DNA of 61,744 nucleotides, counting the filler, from Ionaspis alba (lineage: Eukaryota), in the NCBI GenBank assembly GCA_964255285.1. It is 4 parts of 4 records of this genome, joined end to end, with 100 filler letters (N's around TTAATTAATTAA, not from the genome) between each part and the next. Parts side by side here need not be neighbours in the genome. Positions count along the whole stretch, not along the records: positions 15,482 to 30,858 come from CAXUUL010000381.1; 3 more parts are not named here. One strand, given 5' to 3'. The position numbers and the translations under genes are program-made. Shown here piece after piece: positions 108-23,078 of the stretch. Every line of letters starts with the position of its first letter. Positions within the stretch are counted from its first letter, which is position 1. Below the pieces are notes generated by a model, which did no database searches, was not told the origin of the DNA, and saw only the letters and a list, made by a program, of their open reading frames with translations.

Positions 108-3100
108 TCATCCCCCTCCAACTCCGCTTCCACCACGACTTCCACTCCTACTCCCACTACTCCTACTCCCCGTACTACTCCCCTCCCCATGTCCTGCCTC
201 CTCCCCAAGGATAATCTCCTCCAAATTCTCCCTTTCCCCACTCTGCTTGACCATCTCCCAAAACACACCTTGCTTCTTCAACAATTCCCTCGGAGAATCG
301 TATTCCACTGCCCTTCCCTCACTCATTACCAAGATCTTATCGAAATCCGCAATCGTGCTAAGCCGATGCGCAATCACAAGCAACGTGCTGTCTCCGAACT
401 CTTCCCTAATACTCCTCTGAATAAGGACATCCGTGGCCATGTCGACAGCCGAGGTCGCTTCATCCAGGACCATGATCTTCGGCCGCGAGACGATTGCACG
501 AGCGAGACAAAGCAGCTGGCGCTGTCCTTGGGACAAGTTAAGCCCGCCTTCCGAAATCTTCGAGCCCAAGCTCTGGAAGATATTCGTATTTGTATCACCA
601 CCCGCCGCACTACCACTAGCGCTCGACTCTGCAGCACTCTCATCTCGACTCTCGGGTCTGGTGCTGCGAACAAGGTGCACTCGTTCCAGGGCATCGCGCA
701 GCTCGGCATCAGTATGCTCGTGGAAAGCGTCGAGGTTCGAACGAATAGTGCCGGAGAAAAGCACCGGATCTTGGGGGATGATAGCAAGACGGCTACGCAG
801 ATCGTGTAGGTTGATGGTGGAGACATCGATACCGTCGATGAATATTATCCCTTCGCGGGCTTCGAGGAAGCGGAAGAGCGCAAGGGTGAGCGAGGATTTG
901 CCTGCGCCAGTGCGGCCAACGACTCCGACACGTTGATTCTTCTCGACAGTAAAGGAAAGGCCTTTTAGGACAGGAGGGAGGTCGGGGGCGTAGCCTGAGA
1001 CGAGGTCAGTGACTTCAAGACGGCCTTCCGTGGGCCAGGCGGCGGGCGGTGCGGAGCCGGTTTGATCTTCGATCGGGATGAGGGAGTATTCTATGACGCG
1101 CTCGGTGGCGTTCATTTCCATTTCTACTTGAGCGTAGGCGCGTAACGTCCATATGATGGCGGACGTGTATTGCAAAGCGAACGACAATGCGAAACCGGCA
1201 AGAGATGCATCAATGTCTTTCGAAGCAACAACGAGAGCGGCTACGACGATGGCGAAGCTGGCACCGATGAGGTTGAGACGGAGACCCATCCATCGATTGA
1301 ATAGCCAGATGTGCCAGAAGGCAGAGGCGTGGGCGTCGACTTTTTGGAACATCCTACCGATTAATGTGGTTAGTCATTGTTGCATGCGTCAAAAATGGAA
1401 ACGGAAACTCGCATACCTGTGGATGTATTCCTCCGTCTTGTCGAACGCCCTAATCGTTCCCACACCCGCTAACGCCGACCCGAATTGCTCAAAGATCGGA
1501 CTCTTAGCATTACTCTCGAGCCTCTTGACCTCTCTCGCTCCTGCCAAAAACCTCGACGCAACGAAAACGGCTACGCTCAGTAGAATCACAGCAAAGATGA
1601 TCATATACGGCGAGATAATGAAACCTGTAATGGTGATGCCGATCATCTGCAATAATTGGCCAAGAAGGAACCCCGTATTGGGTGCGATTCTCGAATCCAC
1701 AGCATTGAAGTCTGCTGTGAAGCGGTTGAGGACGCGGCCAAGGGGGACTGTGTCGAGCCAGCGGAGGGGAGCGCGAAGAACGGTGTAGAGGAGGTTCTGG
1801 TAGAGAATGCGGGAGGCTTTGAGGGAGATGACAAAGATGAAGAGGTGCATTGAGGAGCCGATGATAACAAGGGTGACGCTGAGGGCGACGTAGATGCCAA
1901 GATAGTACCAAATATCTCCTGGGTCGGAGTCCAAAATCCTAGGATTGATGTATACTTGAAGGGTGGGGTTCAGGTAGGAGTGGTTCTGGATGCTGGAGGC
2001 TTCGGTCTCGTAGGATCGTGTCCAGATGCTGACCCAATAGGACTAAGTCAAGTCAAGTCAGTCTCAATCCCGGCGCAGAGATAATGCCTTGTGGAAGGAA
2101 CAAGAGCCACAGAACGTCATCCTCTCTTCAATCACAAAGGTACTCCATGGAAGGGAAGTTGAGGAAAAGTAGACATACTCTGAAAAGTAACATCACCACG
2201 AAGACCGTAAAACCGCCAGTCACGAGCGGCCAAGTGGACCAACCCCCGCTCGTCTTGAAATACTCCCTGTAGACCGCCCACTTGACGCTCCCCTGCTCTC
2301 TCTTCTCATCCTCGGTGAACTTCTTTGGCTGTCCCTTACCCTTGATATCGATACCGCCATCATCGATCTTAGCAGAGCGTGTACTGCGATGACTCACCAT
2401 CTTCGAGAGCATGTTGGCGCTCTCTTCTTCGGCTTTTAGTAGATTGCCTCCCACATCTTCTTTCTCGTCGGGCACTTCTTCCTGGCTCAAGATCTTAGCC
2501 AGACTTCCGGTACGCTGCAATTCCTCCACGAAGCCTGCATGCTCCACCGTACCCTCTCCTAATTGTACTGTGTATTTGGTCTTCGGTAGACATAACGCCA
2601 CGTGATGAGTAACTAGTATCCGTGTCCTTCCGGTCCCTAGCTCGCCTGTGAGAGCGTCTTCAAATAGCTGTCGTCCTACATGAGCGTCAACGGCGCTGAA
2701 TATATCATCTAAGACCAGTATGCCAGCACGAGAGTAGAGGGCACGAGCGAACGAGACCCTCCATCTTTGACCTCCACTAAGATTGATACCATTGGCACCA
2801 ATATCGGTCAATTCGCCATCGGGTAATATCTCAAGATCCTTCTCCAGAGCGCAGACTCTCTTCACGGTGTTGTAACGACCAGAATCAAAGGGCAAGCCGA
2901 AGAGTATGTTATCTTTGATTGTTGCGTTTTCGATCCAAGGGATCTGTGCCACGAACGCAACACTAGAGTCGATGACCCAATTGCCCTTCGTGGCTAGGTG
3001 ATCAAACCTATCATTCAACGAAGGTGCTTTGGGCACTTTGATCGTGCCTGATATCTTATCCACCTCACCAAGTATGGCAGCAAGCAACAAGCTCTTGCCA

Positions 3101-16623: not shown

Positions 16624-17210
16624 TTGAGCGGGTCTTGACTGCACACAGGTGTGGTATAGAATAAGAACTTCAACAGCAGAACATGTCAAGTTTTGATGAA
16701 GATAGCATATGAAAATTGCGGTTCGCGGAATGGAAAGGGTGACATGCTAGGGGCGACATGGCAGAGGTCAAGCAAGCACAGCCGCGCTGCTGGTTATTGA
16801 CAAGCCGATCCTACTCGGATCCTGGGTGGAACACAACCAGTAACACAACCAAGAAGTCACCATGTACCTACCACGTCGTTACTATCATGCGACAGCTCAG
16901 CTCTGGGGTATATTCACAATCTTAGTGTAAATGATAACAAACTATGGAATGAGAGCCTCGAGAAATTGACGTCTAAAGCTTTGTCACTTGCCCTTCGCGT
17001 CCGGTCAAAGCCTCCCGGCTCCGCCTTGGCACTTTTATTCCTGCGCCACCTCACCGCCGGGTTCTTTTCAGCTTCTGTGGTGGCTTGGGAAGTACCACGC
17101 GACGGATATTNNNNNNNNNNNNNNNNNNNNNNNNNNNNNNNNNNNNNNNNNNNNNNNNNNNNNNNNNNNNNNNNNNNNNNNNNNNNNNNNNNNNNNNNNN
17201 NNNNNNNNNN

Positions 17211-18311: not shown

Positions 18312-19909
18312 ATTGGAGAGTATAATATATGTAAGTCGTTATGTATAGCGCTATCAGGTTAATCGATTTCGAAGATGTGGTTCGTTAATGCTGAAGAATT
18401 TGGAACAAGACACTGCTTGGAGGACTGTCGCTATATGTGCACCTTGTCATTGCATAACCCCACACTGTCAAATCAACACATGGAGGGGTCAATCCGTCCG
18501 GGGAAGCTCGAAGATCGGCAATCTCAGAGCGGGCAACTAGAGGACGCTGCAATCGTCCCGTACTAGTAAAGTCGTTCTGCTCAAAGCTCTTCCACTTGAA
18601 CCTCTGGCCCCGGCCCTCGCCGTCCTGCGGCACCATCGGAGATATGGAGAAAGTTGAGTAAGACCAACCCATAACGCTGCGAGGTTTGGGATTGTAAATA
18701 GAAAAATAGCCGATTGAATTAATCGTTCGTGCGAGAGCCCTGAGATCTGAAGAGTACGGGTGGCGGAGGAGCTTGAAAGTCTAAGCACAGCGAATCGGCA
18801 CCAATGACAGCTGTCCGGTGCAGCGGATGGCTTGTATATCCATGCCACGAGCCACCCACAAATATGCACATTGCGTGTCTCCTGGTTTGTAGCCTTGGTG
18901 TGGCATTGAAAGCGCTGCCTAGTGGTATCTGCTTGTAGCGAATCCAGGAGATGTGTGGTGGTTGTGTCGTTTGAATCCGTTTCTATCAAATNNNNNNNNN
19001 NNNNNNNNNNNNNNNNNNNNNNNNNNNNNNNNNNNNNNNNNNNNNNNNNNNNNNNNNNNNNNNNNNNNNNNNNNNNNNNNNNNNNNNNNNNAGATGTGTG
19101 GTGGTTGTGTCGTTTGAATCCGTTTCTATCAAATCAATAATGGCAGAGCCCGATGGGCTGCCGACCAGATGCAGACACAGTCCGGGAGCAATAAAACCCT
19201 GAACATCCATAACAGGGTTATGGTCATCGGGGACGATGTGTGAGTCGCCGAGGGAATCAATGTCGCGGGGTATGTTGTGGGTGTGCTGCGGGGCAAGAGA
19301 CAATGATAGCCCTTTGGACCCTGCCACGGGCTGCAAAGCATCGTCATCGGTTGTTGAGCGATGAGGGTCGGCCTCATGGAGATTTCGGATGAATGCAGTG
19401 GAATATCAAGCGCAGCACTATTGTGTGACAGCGGGTGCTGCGGAGCTATTAAAAAACCACATGGAAGTCAATGTGCAGAGGTGAAGTCTCGAGATATTGC
19501 CAAGGCGGGCCTTCCGGCTAATAGATCTGGCGTAGCTCGCTATCTTCCGGCTTCCTCAACTCATCCATGTTGCCGTAGCCGGCATCGATCGAAGGCCTAC
19601 TACGTGCCTACTACATGCCTCCACCTACGTCTTACGCGTCCGGAAGTCGACGGGAGCTGTTTGGTCTAACGTTTGCCAGTCCCCATATGGATCAAGAAGC
19701 TATTCCCCTGATAGGTTGTTGAGAATGCTCGGAAAGTATGCTGTGCTATAACTCAACCAAAACTGACCGACCTCGACTCCCCTTTAGGTTGTCTCCCAGC
19801 CGACTTTATGTAAGCAGACTCAGGACCCCCCAGCAAAGTTGCCACAAAAGCAGGGCCACTGTCGATAAAACTAAGTATATGAATTTGTTGCGGAATGTTG
19901 TGCAACGGA

Positions 19910-19914
19910 TATAA
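19910..19914 (+). promoter_or_regulatory. Upstream TATA-like element (TATAA) of the tRNA-Ile gene
   Basis: GGATATAAGG lies 38 nt upstream of the mature tRNA 5' end, a plausible TBP/TFIIIB position. Confidence 0.45.
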
Positions 19915-19962
19915 GGTGCCAGTGTCGCCGGTATTGAGAACATTTCTGGTCCCTTAGCTCAG

Positions 19963-20012
19963 GTAAATTACAAACATCTCAATTGTTTGACATATCACTA
20001 ACCAACAACCAG
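19963..20012 (+). other. Spliceosomal-type intron (50 nt) in the tRNA D-loop between positions 15 and 16
   Basis: 5' GTAAAT, branch site CACTAAC at 19996-20002, 3' CAG at 20010-20012. Removing it exactly restores a normal D-loop. Confidence 0.85.
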
Positions 20013-20035
20013 TTGGTTAGAGCGCGGTGCTAATA

Positions 20036-20054
20036 TCCTCCATATGTATTGATG
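20036..20054 (+). other. Canonical tRNA intron (19 nt) at position 37/38
   Basis: TCCTCCATATGTATTGATG starts one base 3' of the anticodon; its TATTG can pair with the anticodon-loop TAATA. Confidence 0.85.
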
Positions 20055-20104
20055 ACGCCGAGGCCGCGAGTTCGACCCTCGTAGGGACCAGTATGACCGA
20101 TATC

Positions 20105-20138
20105 TTTTTATTGCTTGTTTCCCCCTCTGTTTTTTTTT
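20105..20138 (+). terminator. Pol III oligo-T terminators of the tRNA gene
   Basis: T5 at 20105-20109 and T9 at 20130-20138, immediately downstream of the tRNA. Confidence 0.75.
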
Positions 20139-23078
20139 GTGCGCATCAGATGTGGATGGTCAGCCTCGGCAACATTATGATGGTTGGCCTACAGATTTCC
20201 TTGGCAGCAACTGGCTCTTTGAGGCCACGGCTATCCAGTCCAACGGTCGTTCCATCAAGGATAGAGGTCCGCACATCTCTCGGTATATCCATGCCCATTG
20301 GGTATGTGTGACGTTACTGCCTGTTCGAGGGGTTGTCATCTAACAACAATATACCACATATTCGTACCTAGGCAGTGCACACGTCAAACCGTCCAATTCT
20401 CCTAGTCGACGGAATGGTTGTCCAATACACCCTTTCTCAAGAATCTGCCTCGCTCGACCACCCTTGCAGTCCGCCTAACCACGATAGAGCCCCCAGCCAG
20501 AAACACACGACCTTATCGCATCCTTCAGTAGCTAAGAGACAAGACATACGTGAACGTCGTCACCCCCGGCAAAGGAATATCAGTAGATCATTCCCACCAA
20601 GGACTCCTTCCTCGCCTTCGAGTCAGCGACGTGCCATACAATTCTTTCATTTTGTTTGGCCATTGTATACAGCGCTATCTCCTAGGAGTTCCCATAGCAT
20701 GAAGTACTCGACCCATTTATCTCCATATCTTAATTGCAAAGGGTTGTCACCAAAATTGAACTTGCTGAAATCCATCGCTGATCTGCCTCTTTCTGAGCAA
20801 CTCCCACGCTTATTCAAGGAGTATGCAAAAGTACCGAGTCTGCTAAGCGTACCGCGAGTTGAGACATTCAGACGGAGATGCTTTGTGCAAATGCGCTCGG
20901 TAACCTCTCTATCAATATATGAACTGGCAAGTGGTTGCATTGCTCTGGTTGTTAATTTATGTAATCTGCTTGATGCACACATTCACGTAACCGTTCACTT
21001 CAGTACACAGAAGGTTACTTGCTGGCATCCATTGGCATGTTGCCTTCCGTCGTACATGAACAACAACATCACCGCAAAGTTTCTGAAAACCTAGCACATC
21101 TCGTCACGGCAAGTGAAAGACCTCAACCTCGTCAGCGAGCGGTTTGGCTTTTTGCTGAATCGCATAGGTTGAGTCCAGACGGAGATTGCTCGTGTTGTAA
21201 AGATATGAAATGTTTTATGATATCCAAGTGATGGTTCTCATATCACCTTCCGACCCCGTGGCCCATTTGTTTGATGTATCGAAGATAAGCAGTCATAAAT
21301 AATGAAGCAGTTCCCACAATCTCATATGCCCCAAGTGCCAATGCGTCCAGGGTTGTGGAGATTGTTGCATTCATCATTCGCTTGAGGTCAGCAGAATGAT
21401 GCGTTTTGACCAGATAGACATGTTTGCTATCTAGGAATCGGCTCTTTCTTCGTACGAAATCCTTCAACCATTGGATGTCGAATCCCAAGTCCTTTGCTTG
21501 CGTCGTTATCCATGAAAATACTACACCAGATTTCTCCTGCAGCAAATCTGTCGTTCACGCACGGTTTAATAATGCTTGCGAGGCTCATTAATTACGAGCA
21601 TTTCGAACGTCAGGTATTGGCACTAGGTTTCACTTCTAAGGGAACCATTTTGGATCTTGAAATTATGCAGAATCACGAAATAGCTTGACAACACTGTCTC
21701 TACAACACCCTAACAAATCTTGACAACACTGCACAAACCCTAAGTAGAAGAACTGCGAGACAAGAGCATTGTCGATGACCACGCTATGCTGCTAGGATTA
21801 TGGGGGCAGCATAGGCCCACTGCTGAATGTACCTAAATAATCTGATGTATCAAAAATCTACAAGGACTACACACTTAGAGGTAAACTACAAACCTGAAAG
21901 AGTAGTACGCAATGATAGCCAGTCCTCGAGCTGCATCGCTGCGTGAGTGACATTCTGGTAATTTAGAGAGCATGATTCTCGGGCTCACGAGAGATGATGC
22001 GGAGCACTCCGTTTACATGTCGAAGCCAAAAGCGAAGCGCGACAGGCATAGACAGACAGATGCCTAACAGCTGAATGCGGGGAACGTCCTACTTCACCAA
22101 GCAAGGTAACATAGATGCAGATTTCTCTGTCCCTGTCTCTTTCGACGAATTTGTCAAGTCTCCTAGCCCGGGGGTGGAGCTTAGCGCTTGACGCCAGGCG
22201 GCTACCCAAAGTCCTGGCTTGGCAAGNNNNNNNNNNNNNNNNNNNNNNNNNNNNNNNNNNNNNNNNNNNNNNNNNNNNNNNNNNNNNNNNNNNNNNNNNN
22301 NNNNNNNNNNNNNNNNNNNNNNNNNNGGGTGGAGCTTAGCGCTTGACGCCAGGCGGCTACCCAAAGTCCTGGCTTGGCAAGCATTGGCATCCACTAGAGG
22401 CTGTCTTGTCAGTGATACTTCTTTTCAAACCCTCCATTGGTGGACGGCTCTGTTAAAACGGTCAACATTGTTTGGATAAGGAAGCTGAAAAGTCAAAGTT
22501 GCACAACTAATGCTTAAGTGCTTGCACTTTCCCGGATCCTTTGGATCGGTTATAACGGCTCCTGACCAGACGCCATGACGTACTGACAACCCTAGGAAGG
22601 CACGGTGCAAAAGTTCCTCGACGCAATAATGTATCCACTTCCCCATATTCATGATTTCCGAGGAGACGATAGCCTATACCGACTTTACCGACGCGTCCCA
22701 TCCTCGTGGGTTATGCGGGGAACAAGCTTTCCTGAAGCCATGGCTTTGGATTGATTGAGCTCGATTGGATGCGGCGTTGATGGCTGTGGAAAGCCATCAA
22801 CGGACATGCCTGTTCTGTGTTATTAATGTGGAGTTTCTACTATGTTTACCGTGATACCCGTGTACCGCTTTTGATCTAAGCTGGGATAATGTTTATGCTC
22901 TATGCAGTGACGTACCAGAATAGGCAGGACCTTTCCCTTCTCCTTGCCATTCATGGAGAAGTATTGTTCTTACCTCTCTGCATCTTTGCTTTCCTCCCTC
23001 GTCCGTTGCTGAAACACGCCTGCATACTCCCTTTCATATCAAGAAACGTATCCTACTGCTTGACGAAATCTCGGTACC

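Follow-up and report, generated by a model that had tools for sequence, protein, structure and literature searches.

A putative spliceosomal intron in the D-loop of a tRNA-Ile(AAU) gene from Ionaspis alba

According to the part of a 2018 review on U6 that is drawn on here (PMC5855946), messenger RNA (mRNA)-type introns are found in the U6 small nuclear RNA (snRNA) genes of S. pombe and other fungi (Tani and Ohshima 1989, 1991; Canzler 2016), and spliceosomal introns also occur in the U1, U2 and U5 snRNA genes of Rhodotorula hasegawae and in ribosomal RNA (rRNA) genes of ascomycetes (Takahashi 1993, 1996; Bhattacharya 2000). Reverse splicing has long been proposed as the origin of the U6 introns (same part of PMC5855946). 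The hosts listed in these passages are the U6, U2, U5, U1 and rRNA genes, and transfer RNA (tRNA) is not mentioned in them. The present work deals with a stretch of 61,744 nucleotides (nt), filler included, from Ionaspis alba (GenBank assembly GCA_964255285.1), which as a whole is referred to as the window. Positions 19948-20090 of the window appear to represent a nuclear gene for tRNA-Ile(AAU), belonging to a fungus-like eukaryote, and two introns of unrelated types interrupt this gene. One of them is a canonical tRNA intron in the anticodon loop. The other is a 50-nt insert in the D-loop which, judging from its sequence and from related genes, is probably an intron removed by the spliceosome from the transcript of a functional tRNA gene.

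Spliceosomal and tRNA introns are regarded, in textbooks as well as in recent papers, as two unrelated classes whose substrates are separate. In the relevant portion of a 2025 paper (PMC12530127) the three eukaryotic intron types are called “completely unrelated”, spliceosomal introns being assigned to mRNAs and Pol II (RNA polymerase II) transcripts and tRNA introns to the endonuclease. A 2014 review on tRNA introns (PMC4090602) contains no word starting with “spliceosom”, and in it insertions in the D or T arm of eukaryotic tRNA genes are regarded as probable pseudogenes, with nucleomorphs and Cyanidioschyzon excepted. Introner-like elements and spliceosome-mediated intron transposition have been described in fungi (van der Burgt 2012; Collemare 2015, as cited in the pertinent part of PMC11146597). 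The first-pass annotation of the window, made from the sequence, had named fission-yeast U6 and ascomycete rRNA genes as known hosts of spliceosomal introns, which agrees with the passages of PMC5855946, and had stated that no established case in a tRNA was known. A full-text literature search, covering mostly sources outside the subscription journals, likewise brought up no tRNA gene reported to contain a spliceosomal intron; an older report is possible.

On the plus strand of the window, the 143-nt body of the gene (19948-20090) is split by two inserts, as derived from the sequence, ARAGORN and Rfam. Exon 1 (19948-19962, 15 nt) ends in TAGCTCAG and comprises the acceptor 5' strand, U8 and A9, the D-stem 5' strand, A14 and G15; it also carries the 5' two-thirds of the A box. 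The 50-nt D-loop insert follows between nucleotides 15 and 16 (19963-20012, from the sequence and ARAGORN). Exon 2 (20013-20035, 23 nt) extends from TTGGTTAGAGC to the anticodon loop (CTAATA) and holds the remaining D-loop, the D-stem 3' strand, the anticodon stem 5' strand and the anticodon loop through A37, with the anticodon AAT at 20032-20034. A canonical 19-nt tRNA intron at position 37/38 (20036-20054, detected with ARAGORN -i) separates it from exon 3 (20055-20090, 36 nt), which supplies A38, the anticodon stem 3' strand, the variable loop, the T arm, the acceptor 3' strand and the discriminator A. The exon limits were taken from ARAGORN, run after deletion of the insert, and from the alignment to the Rfam tRNA model (RF00005).

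ARAGORN, with introns allowed, called no tRNA in the intact locus and none in the whole 61.7-kb window. When 19963-20012 alone was deleted, it called a tRNA-Ile(aat) with a 19-nt anticodon-loop intron, and when both inserts were deleted, a 74-nt cloverleaf was obtained, with four fully paired stems that include two G-U pairs. In a whole-window search at the gathering threshold (score 29), RF00005 missed the locus. On a 351-nt stretch the same model matched 19948-20090 end to end (model positions 1-71 of 71, 34.6 bits, E 9.8e-06), and the alignment placed a 57-nt insertion in the D-loop and a 22-nt insertion in the anticodon loop. The locus combines a full-length covariance-model match with a four-stem cloverleaf and a 7-nt anticodon loop after removal of the inserts. 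The coordinates and motifs of the split gene, as well as the four paired stems and two G-U pairs of its 74-nt cloverleaf, had been proposed in the first-pass annotation and were all reproduced. It had also named an Ile-AAT call upon deletion of 19963-20012 as support for its model, which ARAGORN gave, and had stated that standard scanners may miss such genes, which was borne out by ARAGORN and by the whole-window Rfam search. Since ARAGORN and genome-wide Rfam/Infernal searches are blind to genes split in this manner, fungal tRNA isoacceptors that seem to be “missing” may be hidden split genes. Single deletion of 44,666 GT..AG candidates across the window gave ARAGORN tRNA matches at the 19948-20090 locus only, and pairwise deletion of 93,065 GT..AG pairs in the window disclosed no further tRNA gene.

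The D-loop insert has the features of a short fungal U2-type GT-AG intron. Its 5' splice site is GTAAAT (19963-19968), a donor hexamer used elsewhere in the host; its branch motif, CACTAAC (19996-20002), is of the CTRAY type and places the putative branch A at 20001, 11 nt from the 3' end; its 3' splice site is CAG (20010-20012), a YAG end; and its length is that of such introns. The longest T run within it is 3, in line with the earlier statement that it contains no run of four or more. The 6-bp hairpin CAAACA/TGTTTG noted in the first-pass annotation (19971-19989) is indeed the predicted fold of the insert (-4.5 kcal/mol), but it is weak or marginal (z -2.0, with 9 of 200 shuffles folding equally well) and is not conserved. 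A self-splicing group I or group II intron was considered and rejected, as 50 nt with only one 6-bp hairpin hold no catalytic fold. An Rfam search of 19850-20200 at E ≤ 1 found no family other than tRNA.

For comparison with mRNA introns of the host, an alcohol dehydrogenase (ADH) gene is available 1.6 kb upstream on the opposite strand. It has two introns, 18029-17971 (59 nt, GTATGA...GCTAAC...CAG) and 17466-17420 (47 nt, GTAAAT...CAG). Both were verified: its three exons, translated separately, align gap-free at the junctions to PDB chain 5yat_A, covering residues 3-94, 95-258 (two further residues reach 260) and 261-328, with the junctions at 94/95 and 260/261. The D-loop insert (50 nt) falls in the size class of these introns. 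A list of further candidate introns of the window was left out of the comparison, since its entries had been picked by these very motifs. The match in size and donor hexamer to the 47-nt intron had been pointed out before, and the 5yat_A alignment now confirms that this intron is genuine. The two share their first eight bases, GTAAATTA (19963-19970 and, on the minus strand, 17466-17459). This identity, found 2.5 kb apart, includes the uncommon A at position 5, and the remainder of both introns is unrelated; it may be due to chance or be a trace of common origin. The scaffold contains N runs, one of which (17111-17210) lies inside the last ADH exon, so that the 3' end of the ADH gene is unreadable. 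Pfam searches of the long open frames of the window gave eukaryotic or fungal-type genes only (ABC transporter, Sac1-type phosphatase, Ams2/SPT21).

Metagenomes were scanned with the two exon motifs that flank the D-loop insert, 35-65 unspecified bases being allowed between them and GT and AG not being required. The scan yielded at least 122 matches in at least 120 loci. In 98 of the 122 matches listed, the 5' part of the tRNA is repeated at the end of the insert. The other 24 consist of one assembly gap (L089), 20 matches without a tRNA across the junction and three eukaryote-type split genes; those 20, in which removal of the insert only gave no tRNA, comprise matches due to chance, variants of the duplication and two inserts resembling hairpins (L007, L096). 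A control with the GT..AG form of the pattern covered viral contigs and 185,579 prokaryote genomes. Of its 61 matches, 60 were duplications of the 5' part and one was a chance match without a tRNA.

The three eukaryote-type tRNA genes (L008 and L022 on the minus strand, L095 on the plus strand) are split at 15/16, and the D-loop inserts of all three run from GT to AG and hold CTAAC or CTAAT 12-14 nt from the 3' end. L008 (1437-1581) encodes tRNA-Ile(AAU); its D-loop insert measures 55 nt (GTTAGT...TACTAAT...CAG), and a 16-nt intron is present at 37/38. L022 (1400-1581) is again tRNA-Ile(AAU). Its D-loop insert also measures 55 nt (GTTCGT...GACTAAC...CAG), an intron at 37/38 is absent, and a second insert, of 53 nt (GTAAGT...CAG), lies between T-loop positions 59 and 60. 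L095 (294-543) is a tRNA-Thr(CGU) gene without a 37/38 intron and with three GT-AG inserts, all read on the plus strand: one in the D-loop (309-366, 58 nt, GTATTT...CACTAAC...TAG), one in the variable loop at 47/48 (400-457, 58 nt, GTACGT...TTCTGAC...CAG) and one at 60/61, the T-loop/stem junction (471-530, 60 nt, GTAAGT...TTCTTAC...CAG). Once the inserts are removed, ARAGORN finds 74-nt cloverleaves in L008 (Ile(aat)), L022 (Ile(aat)) and L095 (Thr(cgt)). A blind enumeration of all GT..AG pairs and triples gave the same boundaries in these loci. It also returned three implausible three-intron “tRNAs” from one strand of L008, for which 197,627 combinations were evaluated; in one of the three, the middle exon measures 4 nt. 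This corresponds to a false-positive rate of about 1e-5 per combination for the combinatorial method. Rfam at E ≤ 0.1 found nothing in L008, L022 or L095. A search for related inserts with conserved GT, branch motif and AG had been suggested earlier; the three eukaryote-type genes among the matches listed (3/3) fit this pattern, the intron bodies having diverged.

The DNA compared amounted to 3 kb for L008, 3 kb for L022 and 0.7 kb for L095, all short pieces of metagenome contigs. When these were compared with the window by tblastn and blastn, the tRNA exons alone matched and no synteny was found. As a separate observation, 98 of the 122 listed metagenome matches and 60 of the 61 control matches show a truncated tRNA 5' part 35-65 nt upstream of an intact gene. 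Such duplications beside intact, mostly bacterial, tRNA genes are the expected footprint of elements that integrate into tRNA genes. In addition, L007 and L096 (region 300-357, minus strand) are prokaryote-like contigs with a perfectly palindromic hairpin insert of 38-40 nt at the same D-loop position, without GT-AG. The insert of L007 adjoins an intact tRNA copy, and L096 may be an archaeal multi-intron tRNA.

Together, the four genes contain seven inserts of the GT-AG kind. All seven are 50-60 nt long, start with GT, end in YAG and hold a yTnAy motif, its A lying 11, 12, 12, 11, 14, 14 and 14 nt from the 3' end; in the four D-loop introns the branch motif is CTAAC or CTAAT. In 200,000 trials with random inserts of 50-60 nt and the same composition, GT, AG and a branch-like motif (within a wider zone) occurred together in 0.064%. 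As the D-loop boundary can be drawn in four equivalent registers, the chance for the window gene alone is about 0.3%. By this arithmetic, four independent D-loop inserts with all signals would be far beyond chance.

L008 and L022 yield one and the same mature sequence (74/74), from which that of the window differs at 5/74 positions, its specific bases being C5, C28, G44, C48 and G69. Compared in pairs, the three Ile D-loop introns have identities of 0.56-0.60, values matched by 8-42% of shuffles. With mature sequences 69-74/74 identical and introns that resemble shuffled sequence, it appears that the exons are held constant and the introns drift. L008 and L022 encode the same tRNA with different intron sets, a 37/38 intron in the former and a T-loop GT-AG intron in the latter. 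A conserved intron hairpin was also considered and discarded: only the D-loop introns of the window and L022 beat most shuffles (z about -2), the others having z values of -1.4 to +1.0. The seven inserts fold weakly, like the two ADH introns.

According to the parts of PMC4090602 and PMC9602550 used here, there are D- and T-arm introns that the endonuclease removes in Cyanidioschyzon merolae, in nucleomorphs and in archaea. The inserts could be non-canonical tRNA introns of this sort, their GT and AG being coincidental. All seven were evaluated for a bulge-helix-bulge motif (outer helix, 3-nt bulge, 4-bp helix, 3-nt bulge, inner helix) in every product-equivalent register. Neither the motif nor half of it was found at any insert in any register; the central helix reached at most 3/4 pairs, and never together with both flanking helices. 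For the D-loop insert of the window it was limited to 2/4 pairs in all four registers, without complete flanking helices. The two 37/38 introns, of the window and of L008, displayed an outer (anticodon) helix of 4/4 pairs and a central helix of 2-3/4 pairs. The 19-nt intron of the window (outer helix 4/4, central helix 3/4) occupies the position of an endonuclease intron; the D-loop insert, at 15/16 and without a bulge-helix-bulge, does not resemble one. The failure of all seven inserts in this test supports the earlier proposal that the D-loop insert is of the spliceosomal and not of the tRNA-endonuclease type. The fungal tRNA endonuclease measures from the mature domain to 37/38, which also counts against its action on these inserts. 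Moreover, they fold weakly (z -2.0 to +1.0), all of them carry spliceosomal signals, and their sizes match those of host mRNA introns. Excision by the endonuclease is thus a very unlikely explanation.

An artefact of assembly or scaffolding, with unrelated sequence placed between the halves of a tRNA, would be in keeping with the draft state of the scaffold, as the window contains 764 N. The junctions are, however, covered by Logan contigs that were assembled independently from two public runs: one from run X1 matches 19742-20022 and one from run X2 matches 19914-20099, both with zero differences, the latter spanning the entire gene. A diverged second X1 contig (34 differences and 12 gap letters over 19742-20022) is also free of the 50-nt deletion, and the same architecture is present in three unrelated metagenome contigs. 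An artefact is therefore extremely improbable. X1 and X2 come from one study and X1 may be the source sample of the window, so that the contigs exclude a scaffolding error and give no independent biology. The contigs compared, from three runs of the DNA type, show no joints. Over 19300-20700, run X1 provides two contig series. One agrees with the window throughout, and the other departs from it by numerous substitutions and small indels. Two haplotypes, a dikaryon or mixed strains could account for this, and the D-loop insert is kept in both series.

Regarding transcription, a T5 run resembling a terminator of RNA polymerase III (Pol III) lies on the plus strand at 20105-20109, 15 nt behind the gene, and a T9 run follows at 20130-20138, between the tRNA and a downstream open frame. 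In all four split genes a T5-6 run starts 14-28 nt after the discriminator base, and runs of five or more T occur in 1.9% of random 35-nt stretches of the window. No run of four or more T is present inside three of the four genes, introns included; the introns of L095 hold T4, T5 and T4. The window gene has an intact B box, GTTCGACCC, in the T arm, and 8/11 A-box positions are kept. A TATA-like element, TATAAG (19910-19915, plus strand), lies 38-33 nt upstream of the mature 5' end; a similar one is found at -40 in L008, but not in L022 (-70) or L095 (none). It is possible that TATAAG serves as an upstream Pol III promoter element. The terminator-like T runs and the promoter features point to Pol III, which makes the spliceosomal intron of Pol III-made U6 snRNA the nearest precedent.

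Several points weigh against reading the insert as a spliceosomal intron of a functional tRNA gene. Position 5 of the donor GTAAAT is A, not G, and the donors of L095 intron 1 (GTATTT) and of the other Ile D-loop introns (GTTAGT, GTTCGT) also depart from the textbook GTRNGT. The D-loop position of the metagenome inserts was fixed by the search pattern, and since these loci share no synteny with the window, their D-loop introns may be orthologous to its own or may stem from separate insertions at a single hot spot. TFIIIC should bind less well, as the A box is split by the D-loop insert and about 115 nt separate it from the B box. In L022 and L095 the B box, too, is interrupted, by the T-loop introns, and Pol III could terminate at the T5 run in L095 intron 1. 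Splicing has been shown experimentally for S. pombe U6; for the tRNA introns described here it is predicted from DNA. Finally, the Ile-AAT copy of the window could be a redundant one, as the tRNA search spans the 61.7-kb window.

This possible redundancy and the split A box would be consistent with a dead or dying Ile-AAT copy, hit by a 50-nt insertion such as an introner-like or small mobile element, whose transcript, if any, never made tRNA. Within the part of PMC4090602 used here, D- and T-arm insertions in eukaryotic tRNA genes are indeed described as falling mostly in one of many synonymous copies, supposed to be pseudogenes. In contrast to what decay would produce, the exons are intact and the stems all paired in the four genes, and the mature sequences of L008 and L022 are identical despite unalignable introns. 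Each of the seven inserts combines GT and AG with a branch motif whose A lies 11-14 nt from the end, a combination that is rare in random inserts (0.064%, see above), and terminator-like T runs are kept behind all four genes. The D-loop insert also has no second copy in the 61.7-kb window, where the best other match is 10-13 nt. A dead gene is thus judged unlikely.

The damage to both internal promoter boxes in L022 and L095, together with the T5 run in L095 intron 1, could alternatively mean that the intron is spliceosomal but the transcript is made by Pol II, the tRNA being freed by RNase P and RNase Z after splicing. Spliceosome recruitment is normally coupled to Pol II, which speaks for this option. 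The transcript could be the tRNA's own or be shared with plus-strand open frames about 60 nt downstream, where a candidate gene with an intron lies just behind the tRNA. The open frames 20027-20311 and 20372-21094 can be joined by a candidate intron at 20302-20371 (GTATGT..TCTAAC..TAG), and the possible plus-strand gene (20137-21094), which has no Pfam match, starts about 60 nt behind the tRNA terminator. On the other hand, the T5-6 runs behind all four genes exceed the 1.9% expected by chance, and the T5 and T9 runs separate the tRNA from the downstream open frame. In addition, fission-yeast U6 demonstrates that the spliceosome is able to process transcripts made by Pol III (part of PMC5855946). 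Transcription by Pol II is consequently considered improbable.

If the D-loop insert is a spliceosomal intron in a Pol III transcript, two unrelated splicing machineries would probably act on one small RNA, as the same gene holds an endonuclease-type intron. Pol III would transcribe the 143-nt body by means of the intact B box, the partial A box and perhaps the upstream TATA-like element, and would stop at the T5 run 15 nt downstream. In the nucleus, the spliceosome would recognize GTAAAT, CACTAAC and CAG, and the 50-nt D-loop intron would leave as a lariat. After its loss, the D-loop and T-loop could form the tRNA elbow. End-processing would come next, the endonuclease, measuring from the folded body, would cut out the 19-nt 37/38 intron, and tRNA ligase would join the halves. 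That the spliceosome acts first is suggested by the way in which the endonuclease measures its cut sites from the folded body. The tRNA endonuclease of budding and fission yeast sits on mitochondria, in the cytoplasm. With such a location, the same order would be enforced by compartment.

In a wider sense, the four genes suggest a class of tRNA genes that harbour between one and three GT-AG introns, located in the D-loop (15/16), the variable loop (47/48) or the T-loop (59/60, 60/61). Each of these four distinct insertion sites falls within a loop of the folded tRNA. Gains at such places are compatible with reverse splicing into mature tRNA, or with spliceosome-mediated intron transposition as in fungi. 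The loop bias as a sign of the route of intron gain is suggestive, with four or five events only. A more tentative proposal, somewhat less likely than not, is that the tRNA genes of some fungal lineages are routinely colonised by spliceosomal introns at several loops, via reverse splicing into abundant mature tRNAs followed by reverse transcription and recombination. Every copy of some isoacceptors would then be split, the spliceosome would be obligatory for tRNA maturation of Pol III transcripts, upstream of the endonuclease, and tRNA annotation would be systematically incomplete.

A precursor that needs both machineries, if confirmed, would be a natural substrate for studying how the spliceosome reaches a short, uncapped Pol III transcript. 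It would also bear on the order of nuclear splicing relative to end-processing, export and endonuclease splicing, which is cytoplasmic in yeasts. The loop-only sites, being a prediction of reverse splicing into mature RNA, would further bear on intron gain.

With regard to known systems, the 19-nt intron of the window and the 16-nt intron of L008 belong to the canonical nuclear 37/38 kind, and the 50-nt D-loop insert lacks the features of that kind. The introns of C. merolae, of cryptophyte and chlorarachniophyte nucleomorphs and of archaea are similar in that several may occur per tRNA gene, in the D arm, the T arm and elsewhere, and that scanners miss them (parts of PMC4090602 and PMC9602550). 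According to the same passages, those introns have a bulge-helix-bulge and are cut by the endonuclease, the nucleomorph ones measuring 3-24 nt. In contrast, the inserts described here have no bulge-helix-bulge, measure 50-60 nt and carry GT, branch motif and AG. Introners, as characterized in the portion of PMC11146597 used here, are likewise introns that are non-coding and short (<200 nt); they spread through the genomes of fungi, plausibly into any transcribed sequence, and spread of this type would explain several gains in one tRNA gene. Unlike introners, which form similar multi-copy families, the D-loop insert is single in the window and the D-loop introns of the four genes are dissimilar.

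The closest resemblance is to the fungal U6 genes, in which a short GT-AG intron of about 50 nt with a branch site is likewise found in a small, structured non-coding RNA gene transcribed by Pol III (part of PMC5855946), Pol III transcription being a probable feature of the tRNA genes here. The U6 genes, as covered in that part, have up to four introns each, share only canonical splice signals and show a scattered presence and absence of introns among related fungi, and the tRNA genes are alike in these respects. Unlike U6, the host RNA is not a component of the spliceosome, and thus proximity to the catalytic centre cannot explain insertion. A further difference from U6 is that the tRNA precursor also carries an endonuclease-type intron, so that two splicing systems would be needed. 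The U1, U2, U5 and rRNA cases share with the tRNA genes the presence of spliceosomal introns in non-coding RNA genes, including transcripts not made by Pol II (rRNA); they differ in RNA class and polymerase, and snRNAs and rRNAs have no second, protein-only splicing pathway. Compared with these systems, tRNA would represent a new host class for spliceosomal introns in small non-coding RNA genes, and the Ionaspis alba gene the putative first case of both intron types in one precursor.

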